Assembly: GCF_041248615.1 (NCBI RefSeq)
Contig: NZ_CP158426.1
Length of the DNA stretch: 64,000 nucleotides
Direction: 5' to 3' (one strand)
Source of the DNA: Escherichia coli
GTDB taxonomy: Bacteria > Pseudomonadota > Gammaproteobacteria > Enterobacterales > Enterobacteriaceae
In this document: positions 39,941 to 41,989 of the stretch, piece after piece
How positions within the stretch are numbered: the stretch's first letter is position 1
Layout: the number at the start of each line of letters is the position of its first letter
Notes under the pieces: generated by a model
The model's input: the letters and a program-made list of their open reading frames with translations, nothing else
Told to the model about the DNA's origin: nothing
The model's database searches: none
Made by a program: the position numbers and the translations under genes

Positions 39941-40192
39941 ATGAACAAAGAGACACAACCCATCGACCGCGAGACGCTGTTGAAAGAGGCCAACAAAATC
40001 ATTCGTGAGCATGAGGATACGCTCGCAGGGATTGAAGCCACCGGCGTCACGCAGCGTAATGGCGTGCTGGTATTTACCGGCGACTACTTTTTAGATGAAC
40101 AAGGATTGCCAACAGCCAAAAGCACCGCGGTGTTTAATATGTTCAAACACCTGGCCCATGTGCTTTCAGAAAAATATCATCTGGTTGATTAA
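39941..40192 (+). CDS. yciN: small protein YciN
   Basis: 83-aa ORF matching YciN; divergent from topA. Confidence 0.85.
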
Positions 40193-40202
40193 AAATAAAT
40201 AT

Positions 40203-40226
40203 CCTCCGGCATAGCCGGAGGTTTTT
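40203..40226 (+). terminator. yciN intrinsic terminator
   Basis: hairpin cctccggc-ata-gccggagg followed by ttttt. Confidence 0.6.
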
Positions 40227-40227
40227 C

Positions 40228-40905
40228 AAATGCGCCTGTAAGGCTCTGTTACCAGCCGCGCCCTAACAGGCGCATACGATCTGACATTTGCATTCAACTT
40301 CGTTACTTACGGCCCGTAAACGGGCTGCCCGGATAGGGAATCGATAACTGCTCCCCCATTTTATCCTCTTCAAGCTGGTGCTTTATGTAGTCCTGTATCT
40401 TCGCCGTGTTCTTACCCACCGTATCGACATAGTACCCTCGGCACCAGAACTCCCTGTTTCTGTATTTGAATTTCAAATCCCCAAACTGCTCGTAAAGCAT
40501 CAGACTGCTTTTCCCTTTCAGATATCCCATAAAGCCGGATACGCTCATTTTGGGTGGGATTTCCACAAGCATATGGATATGATCTGCGCAGCACTCTGCT
40601 TCCAGAATCCGTACGCTTTTCCACTCACACAGCTTTCTCAAAATACTGCCTATCGCCCTACGCTTCTCTCCGTAAAACGCCAGTCTTCGGTATTTCGGCG
40701 CAAAAACTATGTGATATTTACAGTTCCAGCGGGTGTGCGCTAAGCTCTTTTCGTCCCCCATTGGGACCCCCTTTTGATTTCTTGTTTGACACTTGCAGTT
40801 GCCAGACCGCAAGGTGTTTTAACAAATCAAAAGGGGTTTTAATAACTGGCTCAAAGCTGAAAGCTTTCCGGAACCCCCAGCCTAGCTGGGGGTTTTCTGT
40901 GCACA
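40228..40905 (-). mobile_element. IS200-type insertion sequence (IS200/IS605 family); boundaries approximate
   Basis: contains a Y1 transposase gene matching IS200 TnpA, plus the characteristic 5' structures: an end-proximal hairpin (40873..40893) and a long stem-loop (about 40767..40836) that occludes the tnpA RBS; no TSD, as expected for this family. Confidence 0.6.
40303..40761 (-). CDS. tnpA: IS200 transposase TnpA (HUH/Y1 family)
   Basis: 152-aa ORF from MGDEKSLAHTRWNCKYHIVFAPKYRR with the HxH motif (ADHIHML) and catalytic Tyr region; track ORF has a 17-aa extension. Confidence 0.9.
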   Translation of the reverse strand: MGDEKSLAHTRWNCKYHIVFAPKYRRLAFYGEKRRAIGSILRKLCEWKSVRILEAECCADHIHMLVEIPPKMSVSGFMGYLKGKSSLMLYEQFGDLKFKYRNREFWCRGYYVDTVGKNTAKIQDYIKHQLEEDKMGEQLSIPYPGSPFTGRK

Positions 40906-40910
40906 ACAAA

Positions 40911-40932
40911 ACGCGAGGTCTTAGCCTCGCGT
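40911..40932 (-). terminator. sohB intrinsic terminator
   Basis: hairpin acgcgaggc-taag-cctcgcgt followed on the minus strand by tttgttgtg. Confidence 0.55.
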
Positions 40933-40939
40933 TTGTCTT

Positions 40940-41989
40940 TTACATCAATGGTTTTTGCCCCCGCTGCCACCAGCGTAACAACAATCGATCGGCGCTCTCT
41001 GCCGCGCTGCCGGTGAATCGGTCAATGAGTCGTTTACGCTGCATATAGCGTACATTGACCACTTCACGGCCTTCCATCAGGCTAAGAATAACTTCATCAC
41101 TGGTGTTGATTTCATCAACCAGGCCTTTCTCTACCGCCTGTTGTCCGTACCAGTGTTCACCCGTTGCCACCTGATCAATATTCAGAGACGGACGCATACG
41201 CTTCACAAAATCTTTAAATAACTGATGCGTTTCGTTCAGCTCTTCGCGGAATTTCTCCCGCCCTTCTTCGGTGTTTTCACCCAGCAAAGTCAGCGTGCGC
41301 TTATACTGCCCGGCGGTGTGCAGTTCGATATCAATATCTTTGCTTTTCAGGAAGCGGTTAAAGTTGGGCATTTGTGCCACCACGCCAATGGAACCCACAA
41401 TAGCAAACGGTGCGGAAACAATTTTGTCCGCCACACAGGCCATCATGTAACCGCCACTGGCAGCAACTTTGTCTACCGTAACAGTTAAAGGAATGTTTTT
41501 ATCACGCAGACGCTGCAGCTGCGAAGCCGCCAGCCCGTAACCATGCACCATGCCACCAGGGCTTTCCAGACGTAGCACAACCTGATCCTGCGGTTTGAAT
41601 GCTGCGAGTACCGCCGTTATCTCTTCACGTAGCGAGTTCACTTCATGGGCGTCCATGCTGCCTTTAAAATCCAGCACCCAGACGCGAGGTTTACTGTCAG
41701 TTGCCACCTCGCCCAGTTTGGCTTTCGCTTTTGCTGCTTTCGCTTCTTGCTTGTGCTTTTTCTTCTGCGCTTTGTGCCACTGTTTTTGCTGATGTGAGTC
41801 CATCAGCGCCGCGGCCAGTTCTTCTTTCATCTCCTTATACTGTTCGCTGAGATTGTTGACCCGTAACTCGCCACGCTGGCGTTTATTACGTTGAGCAACA
41901 TTGACAATAATGGCGGCAATCGCCGCAATCGCTAGCACAACGGTAACGATTTTCGCCAAAAACAAACCATATTCAGACAACAATTCCAC
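40940..41989 (-). CDS. sohB: inner-membrane peptidase SohB (S49 family)
   Basis: 349-aa ORF matching SohB. Confidence 0.9.
   Translation of the reverse strand: MELLSEYGLFLAKIVTVVLAIAAIAAIIVNVAQRNKRQRGELRVNNLSEQYKEMKEELAAALMDSHQQKQWHKAQKKKHKQEAKAAKAKAKLGEVATDSKPRVWVLDFKGSMDAHEVNSLREEITAVLAAFKPQDQVVLRLESPGGMVHGYGLAASQLQRLRDKNIPLTVTVDKVAASGGYMMACVADKIVSAPFAIVGSIGVVAQMPNFNRFLKSKDIDIELHTAGQYKRTLTLLGENTEEGREKFREELNETHQLFKDFVKRMRPSLNIDQVATGEHWYGQQAVEKGLVDEINTSDEVILSLMEGREVVNVRYMQRKRLIDRFTGSAAESADRLLLRWWQRGQKPLM

Follow-up and report, generated by a model that had tools for sequence, protein, structure and literature searches.

A complete IS200 between yciN and sohB of Escherichia coli, inserted without target duplication beside their shared terminator

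The window analysed here is a stretch of 64,000 nucleotides of Escherichia coli (assembly GCF_041248615.1, contig NZ_CP158426.1), in which an insertion sequence of the IS200 type lies between the genes yciN and sohB. IS200 is the smallest member of the IS200/IS605 family, and the literature on the Salmonella enterica element reportedly includes the work of Lam & Roth and the regulatory anatomy of Beuzón et al. 1999. The features of the locus are the following (LE and RE are the left and right ends of the element, SD is the Shine-Dalgarno sequence, and element nt 1 is position 40905):

39941-40192, plus strand: yciN (DUF2498), intact, its stop codon 1-2 nt from the RE
40194-40905, minus strand: complete IS200, 712 bp, with the LE at 40905 and the RE at 40194
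40194-40226, minus strand: RE subterminal hairpin region, with the hairpin CCTCCGGCTATGCCGGAGG at 40203-40221, GAAAAA before it and the 9-nt tail ATATTTATT after it
40230-40275, minus strand: inner RE inverted repeat, ATGCGCCTGT...ACAGGCGCAT, downstream of the tnpA stop codon
40303-40761, minus strand: tnpA, 152 aa plus stop, a Y1 HUH transposase with H61, H63 and Y125
40753-40842, plus strand: candidate art200, coordinates transferred from PMC4513863
40766-40773, minus strand: SD AAGGGGGT, element nt 133-140, six of its eight bases inside the stem of the next feature
40768-40836, minus strand: predicted 5'UTR stem-loop, element nt 70-138, whose 13-bp lower stem would sequester the SD
40872-40894, minus strand: LE hairpin AACCCCCAGCTAGGCTGGGGGTT, element nt 12-34, a perfect 10-bp inverted repeat
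40909-40944, both strands: host bidirectional yciN/sohB terminator, AAACGCGAGG-TCTTAG-CCTCGCGTTT, with its hairpin at 40909-40934
40940-41989, minus strand: sohB (S49 peptidase), intact and transcribed toward the LE

The element between yciN and sohB is a complete, ordinary and IS200C-like IS200, that is, an already known element with a known regulatory anatomy; what we establish for this copy are its identity and completeness, its exact insertion point, its structures, its intact catalytic residues and its frequency in the population. The sequence-only reading had matched its Y1-transposase gene to IS200 TnpA, and profile searches agree with this, the product scoring 8e-37 and 126 bits against Pfam Y1_Tnp and 144 bits, with a cut-off of 55, against the NCBIfam equivalog transpos_IS200 (NF033573). 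TnpA matches the solved IS608 and ISDra2 TnpA structures by sequence and was aligned residue by residue to 2EC2 and 2F4F, with the HUH histidines (H61-I-H63) and Y125 all present; Y125F is the catalytic-dead mutant of the IS200 transposase (Ellis et al., 2015; PMC4513863). A catalytic Tyr in GYYVD was considered and dropped, since both the literature mutant Y125F (PMC4513863) and the conserved Tyr of 2EC2 align with Y125. RefSeq has the same CDS, under WP_000502112.1 and the name "IS200/IS605 family transposase", in the genome of E. coli isolate 362 (NZ_OW967178), where the 1301 bases compared are 100% identical to those of the window, so that the presence of an IS200 here is a matter of routine annotation. 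tnpA is the sole ORF of the 712-bp insert that could be assigned to a family, and tnpB is absent.

The ends were fixed with eleven E. coli copies extracted from different loci (downstream of araE, uhpT, sseA, mukB, carB, plaP, dgcZ and others), all of which have TTGTGCACAG...GGATATTTATT in common, also written TTGTGCACAG...CCGGAGGATATTTATT, and diverge immediately outside it. The T-run at the junction equally permits 40195-40906, which makes the span uncertain by one T; we have preferred 40194-40905, a choice that the sequence alone cannot make, as it gives the published nt 12-34 numbering. A shift of the ends by one further base is ruled out by the comparison with the other E. coli copies, and a boundary GTGCAC...ATATTTATTT was rejected, the base after ...TATT being C or G in other copies. 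The two termini, TGTGCAC... and ...ATATTTATT, do not repeat each other in inverted form, and the element has, instead of terminal inverted repeats, subterminal hairpins at both ends (LE 40872-40894, RE 40203-40221). The span first proposed, 40228-40905, was therefore right at its upper limit and too short at the lower one, which is truly 40194/40195, leaving out 34 nt of the element. It had also been considered that the element might turn out truncated or degenerate, lacking one terminus; by the eleven-copy comparison and by that with empty sites it is complete, with both termini present, and the exact ends and insertion point of this yciN/sohB copy are now fixed.

In E. coli KE55 and ST2747, the empty-site strains with flanks most similar to those of the window, the site reads GATTAAAA directly followed by CAAAACGCG, and the flanks are otherwise identical. 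Compared to them the window has exactly 712 additional bases, with nothing duplicated and nothing lost, i.e., no target-site duplication, and the insertion point falls after the yciN stop codon and before the one bidirectional terminator that yciN and sohB share. A comparison with the empty site of a K-12-like strain, S17-1, did reveal the insertion and only one hairpin; the loss of one host base (G) that the same comparison suggested was rejected as a polymorphism. A search for the G-less junction gave no exact match, and its best matches, KE55 and ST2747, have A in place of G, so that the insertion is exact and the apparent deletion is an allelic difference. The yciN-sohB spacer is indeed polymorphic exactly at the insertion point (window 40193/40194): S17-1, like most strains, has GATTAAAGCAAAACG, KE55 and ST2747 have GATTAAAACAAAACG, and the A allele lengthens the minus-strand T-run used by the element. 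The hairpin at 40909-40934 is the only one in the empty sites fetched (S17-1, KE55 and ST2747). The LE adjoins the minus-strand T-run of this host terminator, TTTTG(T), and the sohB terminator retains its stem and TTTTG, its distal T's now being IS sequence. The element is intergenic and disrupts no gene, as had been said of it: yciN and sohB are intact, occupied and empty strains have one and the same yciN protein (WP_001031530.1), and the sohB protein (WP_000422048.1) recurs in ST2747, where the site is empty. A BLAST search showed an occupied yciN/sohB site in 118 of 5426 complete E. coli genomes; its ~15,600 matches (places) also take in the yciN/sohB flanks.

The main correction concerns the yciN side. 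The sequence-only reading had placed the element between two pre-existing host terminators, that of yciN at 40203-40226 and that of sohB at 40909-40934, and on the plus strand the former is indeed tempting, CCTCCGGCATAGCCGGAGG followed by TTTTT only 10 nt past the yciN stop codon, which resembles a textbook intrinsic terminator and was flagged as terminator-like by our scan. However, the same 34 nt (AATAAATATCCTCCGGCATAGCCGGAGGTTTTTC...) flank tnpA at ten other unrelated E. coli loci and in Yersinia pestis IS1541, where the hairpin is identical, the empty sites of S17-1, KE55 and ST2747 have one hairpin each and not that of 40203-40221, and the difference in insert size is 712 bp rather than 678 bp. 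That layout is thus hardly credible: the hairpin at 40203-40221 belongs to the IS because eleven independent E. coli copies share it, and it is the RE of the element. Its stem also appears in Vibrio marinisediminis and in a Clostridiaceae element with a compensatory double change, CCACCGG...CCGGTGG for CCTCCGG...CCGGAGG, which we take as sequence evidence of selection on the structure, and the fold of the RE DNA has z = -5.0. An Rfam match to Ysr202 (28 bits against a gathering score of 315) was dismissed, an RE hairpin with a T-run resembling a generic terminator. To judge from its sequence the RE hairpin probably terminates yciN now in occupied strains. The yciN-proximal terminator being transposon DNA, the 3' end of yciN in the 118 occupied genomes would then probably be formed by the IS. 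Hairpins beside IS200 copies should be assigned to host genes only after an empty site has been checked.

The LE carries the structures for which IS200 is known. The end-proximal GC hairpin noticed earlier is found at 40872-40894 as a perfect 10-bp inverted repeat with the arms AACCCCCAGC and GCTGGGGGTT; it is also predicted to fold, and it takes up positions 1-23 of Rfam STnc490. In the published element the hairpin at nt 12-34 works as a Rho-independent terminator in both directions and protects tnpA by stopping ~85% of the transcripts that come in from outside (PMC4513863; PMC5435999), and by family analogy it may also be the subterminal hairpin that TnpA binds. The 13-bp stem described as pairing across the tnpA SD is real as well: CCCCTTTTGATTT (40768-40780) pairs perfectly with AAATCAAAAGGGG (40824-40836), the complementarity extends to 16 nt at 94%, and the 3' arm on the tnpA strand covers AAGGGG of the SD, which is located 4 nt upstream of the ATG at 40761 (element nt 145). 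This agrees with the published map of a stem-loop at nt 69-138 and an SD AAGGGGGU (PMC4513863), where the sequestering of the SD blocks 30S binding (PMC4513863; PMC5435999). The 167-nt left end folds at -65 kcal/mol (z = -4.8), a value that none of 200 shuffled sequences reached. Rfam STnc490 is matched over its full length, without truncation, at 40771-40894 on the minus strand, with 146 bits against a gathering score of 56, and the match follows the consensus structure save for four flagged non-canonical pairs. That these are the known devices of IS200 silencing is hence supported by their positions on the published map (PMC4513863) and by STnc490, while the silencing itself is taken from the literature by analogy.

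The literature applies the name STnc490 to the antisense RNA art200. The match in the window is on the tnpA-sense strand and takes in nt 12-39, which precede the tnpA transcription start published at ~nt 40. As the model includes the LE terminator upstream of that start, it documents conservation of the LE, and we therefore read the match as a mark of the conserved LE, not as a defined transcript or RNA product. In IS200 the transcription start of art200 is nt 153/154, the last base of codon 3 (PMC4513863). The window contains the template sequence of art200 and of the 5'tnpA sRNA, and candidate promoter hexamers for art200 were picked by eye at 40717-40722 (TTTACA) and 40741-40746 (TAAGCT), at only 8/12. 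A consensus sigma-70 promoter scan of the region found none for either tnpA or art200; the tnpA promoter of IS200 is known as weak and undefined. Antisense art200 and Hfq add independent repression of tnpA, and in Salmonella the 5' end of tnpA is processed into a regulatory sRNA (PMC4513863; PMC5435999).

Taken as a whole, the best explanation of the locus, to which we would give a probability of about 0.95, is that of a complete IS200, probably still able to transpose, that was inserted without duplication, carries the known silencing devices and has an RE hairpin which is likely the terminator of yciN. IS200 being described as essentially dormant (PMC4513863), the ability to transpose is meant as potential only. 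For transcription, expression of art200, terminator activity and transposition competence we infer only, and the sequence of events would be as follows. In single-stranded form, and without duplicating its target, the element would have entered the T-run after the sohB-side arm of the shared terminator, 1-2 nt past the yciN stop codon and with the LE facing sohB. Transcription arriving at the LE would then be sohB read-through that had escaped the host terminator; it would be stopped at the LE hairpin (nt 12-34), so that read-through would have to pass two terminators, that of the host and that of the LE, to reach tnpA. The stem-loop of the 5'UTR (nt 70-138) would bury the SD, and antisense art200 and Hfq, going by the work on Salmonella, presumably act as well. 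At the other end the RE hairpin with its T5, on the opposite strand, most likely took over as the yciN terminator, the native one being now 712 bp further from yciN.

A quite unlikely alternative is that the copy is an immobile relic, or one that was domesticated and kept because its RNAs (the sRNA derived from the 5' part of tnpA, or art200) or its terminators serve the host. IS200 is reported to be essentially dormant and the Salmonella 5'UTR yields a regulatory sRNA (PMC5435999, PMC12594629), the insertion is common to 118 genomes, which suggests stable vertical inheritance, and the RE hairpin is probably the terminator that yciN uses now. Against it, the copy keeps intact its ORF, its catalytic residues and its two ends, and two other copies 99.4-99.7% identical to it, with the same or nearly identical TnpA, are located at different loci (ygeA/araE, sseA) in other strains, which argues, from sequence, that this subtype moved recently. 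E. coli is not known to carry SPI-1. The known target of the sRNA, invF, is a gene of Salmonella SPI-1 (PMC5435999).

The position of the LE beside a host terminator is by no means particular to this locus. In all eleven E. coli copies the LE comes directly after the hairpin and T-run of a host gene transcribed in the same direction as tnpA. An exact scan for the LE hairpin, with one genome per species, gave 120 loci from Yersinia, Vibrio, Brenneria, Oxalobacter, Mailhella, Desulfovibrio, Bacillota and other MAGs, and 106 unique LE flanks were drawn from these and the E. coli copies. By a strict rule, 85 of the 106 (80%) have a perfect-stem hairpin with a T-rich tail adjoining the LE, compared to 5.1% of control TT/G sites, and the other 21 are mostly imperfect hairpins. 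The junction is position-specific, with T at 73-91% in positions -3 to -6, an invariant TT, and GC-rich sequence from -8 to -14; no defined tetra- or pentanucleotide target could be separated in these 106 flanks from the terminal T's of the element itself. Folding at -10 kcal/mol or better is reached by 97% of the LE flanks and by 17% of the control TT/G sites. Without exception the T-run of the hairpin is on the top strand of the IS and next to the LE, and in no case at the RE. The RE itself shows this architecture too, a hairpin and a T-rich tail, and GAAAA(A) is found 5' of the hairpin foot at both ends.

Several other arrangements were seen around these ends. In Y. pestis NCTC5923 (four loci) and in a Mailhella massiliensis MAG copies are joined head to tail, the LE coming directly after the RE hairpin and tail of another copy, in two variants in which ATATTTATT is followed either by GTG or by TGTG; such junctions suggest that an RE can itself serve as insertion target. 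The same 19-nt hairpin, CCCCCAGCTAGGCTGGGGG, was also found in MAGs of Ruminococcus and Eubacteriales, in a different conserved context, with …AATAAGCAT before it and TATTTCTT… after it, or the complement, often at contig ends; from this context it would seem to be one end of some other repeated element. Pluralibacter gergoviae and Brenneria roseae have the LE hairpin with a normal terminator junction and no recognisable RE hairpin within ~780 nt, and their elements may be truncated or composite. Among the E. coli copies, that of GmF046 is 714 bp long with a frameshifted tnpA, and in GmF067 the small gene mgtT, which an IS200C copy adjoins with its RE, is annotated by RefSeq as truncated at that point, so the RE side can clip short ORFs.

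One possible, although doubtful, explanation of the LE flanks, being drawn from sequence comparison, is that the IS200-group (IS200, IS1541 and relatives in Vibrio, Desulfovibrionaceae, Bacillota and others) takes the intrinsic terminators of the host as its sites of integration. When the DNA is single-stranded, a GC hairpin with a T-run would mimic the RE of the element itself (hairpin and ATATTTATT), and strand transfer at such a mimic would recreate a junction similar to RE-LE. If true, this would explain the near absence of IS200-group elements inside genes, their position always downstream of a co-directional gene and behind two terminators, the head-to-tail tandem copies, and an element that supplies its own terminator for the one displaced; an LE that chooses sites immediately 3' of host terminators would also bear on how the element stays harmless. 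An unlikely alternative needs no hairpin targeting at all and takes the adjacency to terminators as the outcome of purifying selection only, with random insertion at T-rich sites of which the harmless downstream ones survive. Intergenic positions after terminators are neutral places and IS608 and similar elements need only a tetranucleotide target (PMC7290912), both of which fit with selection; the position-specific junction, the excess of folding flanks over control sites, the constant strand and end of the T-run, and the copies placed with the same architecture directly after the RE of another copy speak against it. Terminator-like sequences have been stated, in aggregate, to be enriched upstream of IS200/IS605 elements (bioRxiv 10.1101/2025.07.22.666184). 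In the literature searched we found no explicit or mechanistic account of IS200 targeting terminators, and older IS1541/IS200 papers may cover it.

Within the family, transposition proceeds through a single-stranded circle and needs the two subterminal hairpins, the LE being inserted 3' of a short target without duplication (PMC7290912), and insertion prefers the lagging-strand template (PMC5027513). The plus strand of the window has a GC skew of -0.03, negative in six of eight bins, with the replication origin outside the window, which is weakly consistent with the top (tnpA) strand of the IS being on the G-rich strand, i.e., the lagging-strand template. In this orientation the element would be similar to IS608 and ISDra2, with which it shares the Y1 HUH transposase, the subterminal hairpins at both ends, the lack of terminal inverted repeats and of target duplication and, as it would seem, an LE placed 3' of a short target (PMC7290912). 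It differs from them in that tnpB is absent, the LE and RE hairpins are unlike one another in sequence, and what appears to be targeted is a T-run with a hairpin before it, not a tetra- or pentanucleotide by itself. To judge from sequence, GAAAA(A), located 5' of the foot of each hairpin, is a candidate guide.

The element also resembles the IS200 of Salmonella enterica (Ellis et al., 2015; PMC4513863), which has the same single tnpA of 152 aa with catalytic Y125, the LE terminator hairpin at nt 12-34 (here 40894-40872, predicted), the stem-loop at ~nt 69-138 and the SD AAGGGGGU; its published length is 707 bp, compared to 712 bp here, and the likeness is drawn from the published map. Y. pestis IS1541 (711 bp) is 86.8% identical in DNA, with 141-142 of 152 TnpA residues the same, an identical LE hairpin, RE hairpin and RE tail ATATTTATT, and LE ends that adjoin host terminators likewise, whereas its LE starts with TGTGCCCAG and that of the present element with TGTGCACAG, and its copy number in its host is much higher. 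The E. coli copies that RefSeq labels IS200C (TnpA WP_000526135.1 / WP_000526115.1) are identical to our element at both ends and of the same length between the shared ends (713 nt when counted as TTGTG...TATT), and it is ~4% divergent from them, with 95.7-96.4% identity in DNA and 146-149 of 152 residues in TnpA; WP_000502112.1 itself is called by RefSeq only an "IS200/IS605 family transposase", and the likeness to IS200C is by way of RefSeq labels.
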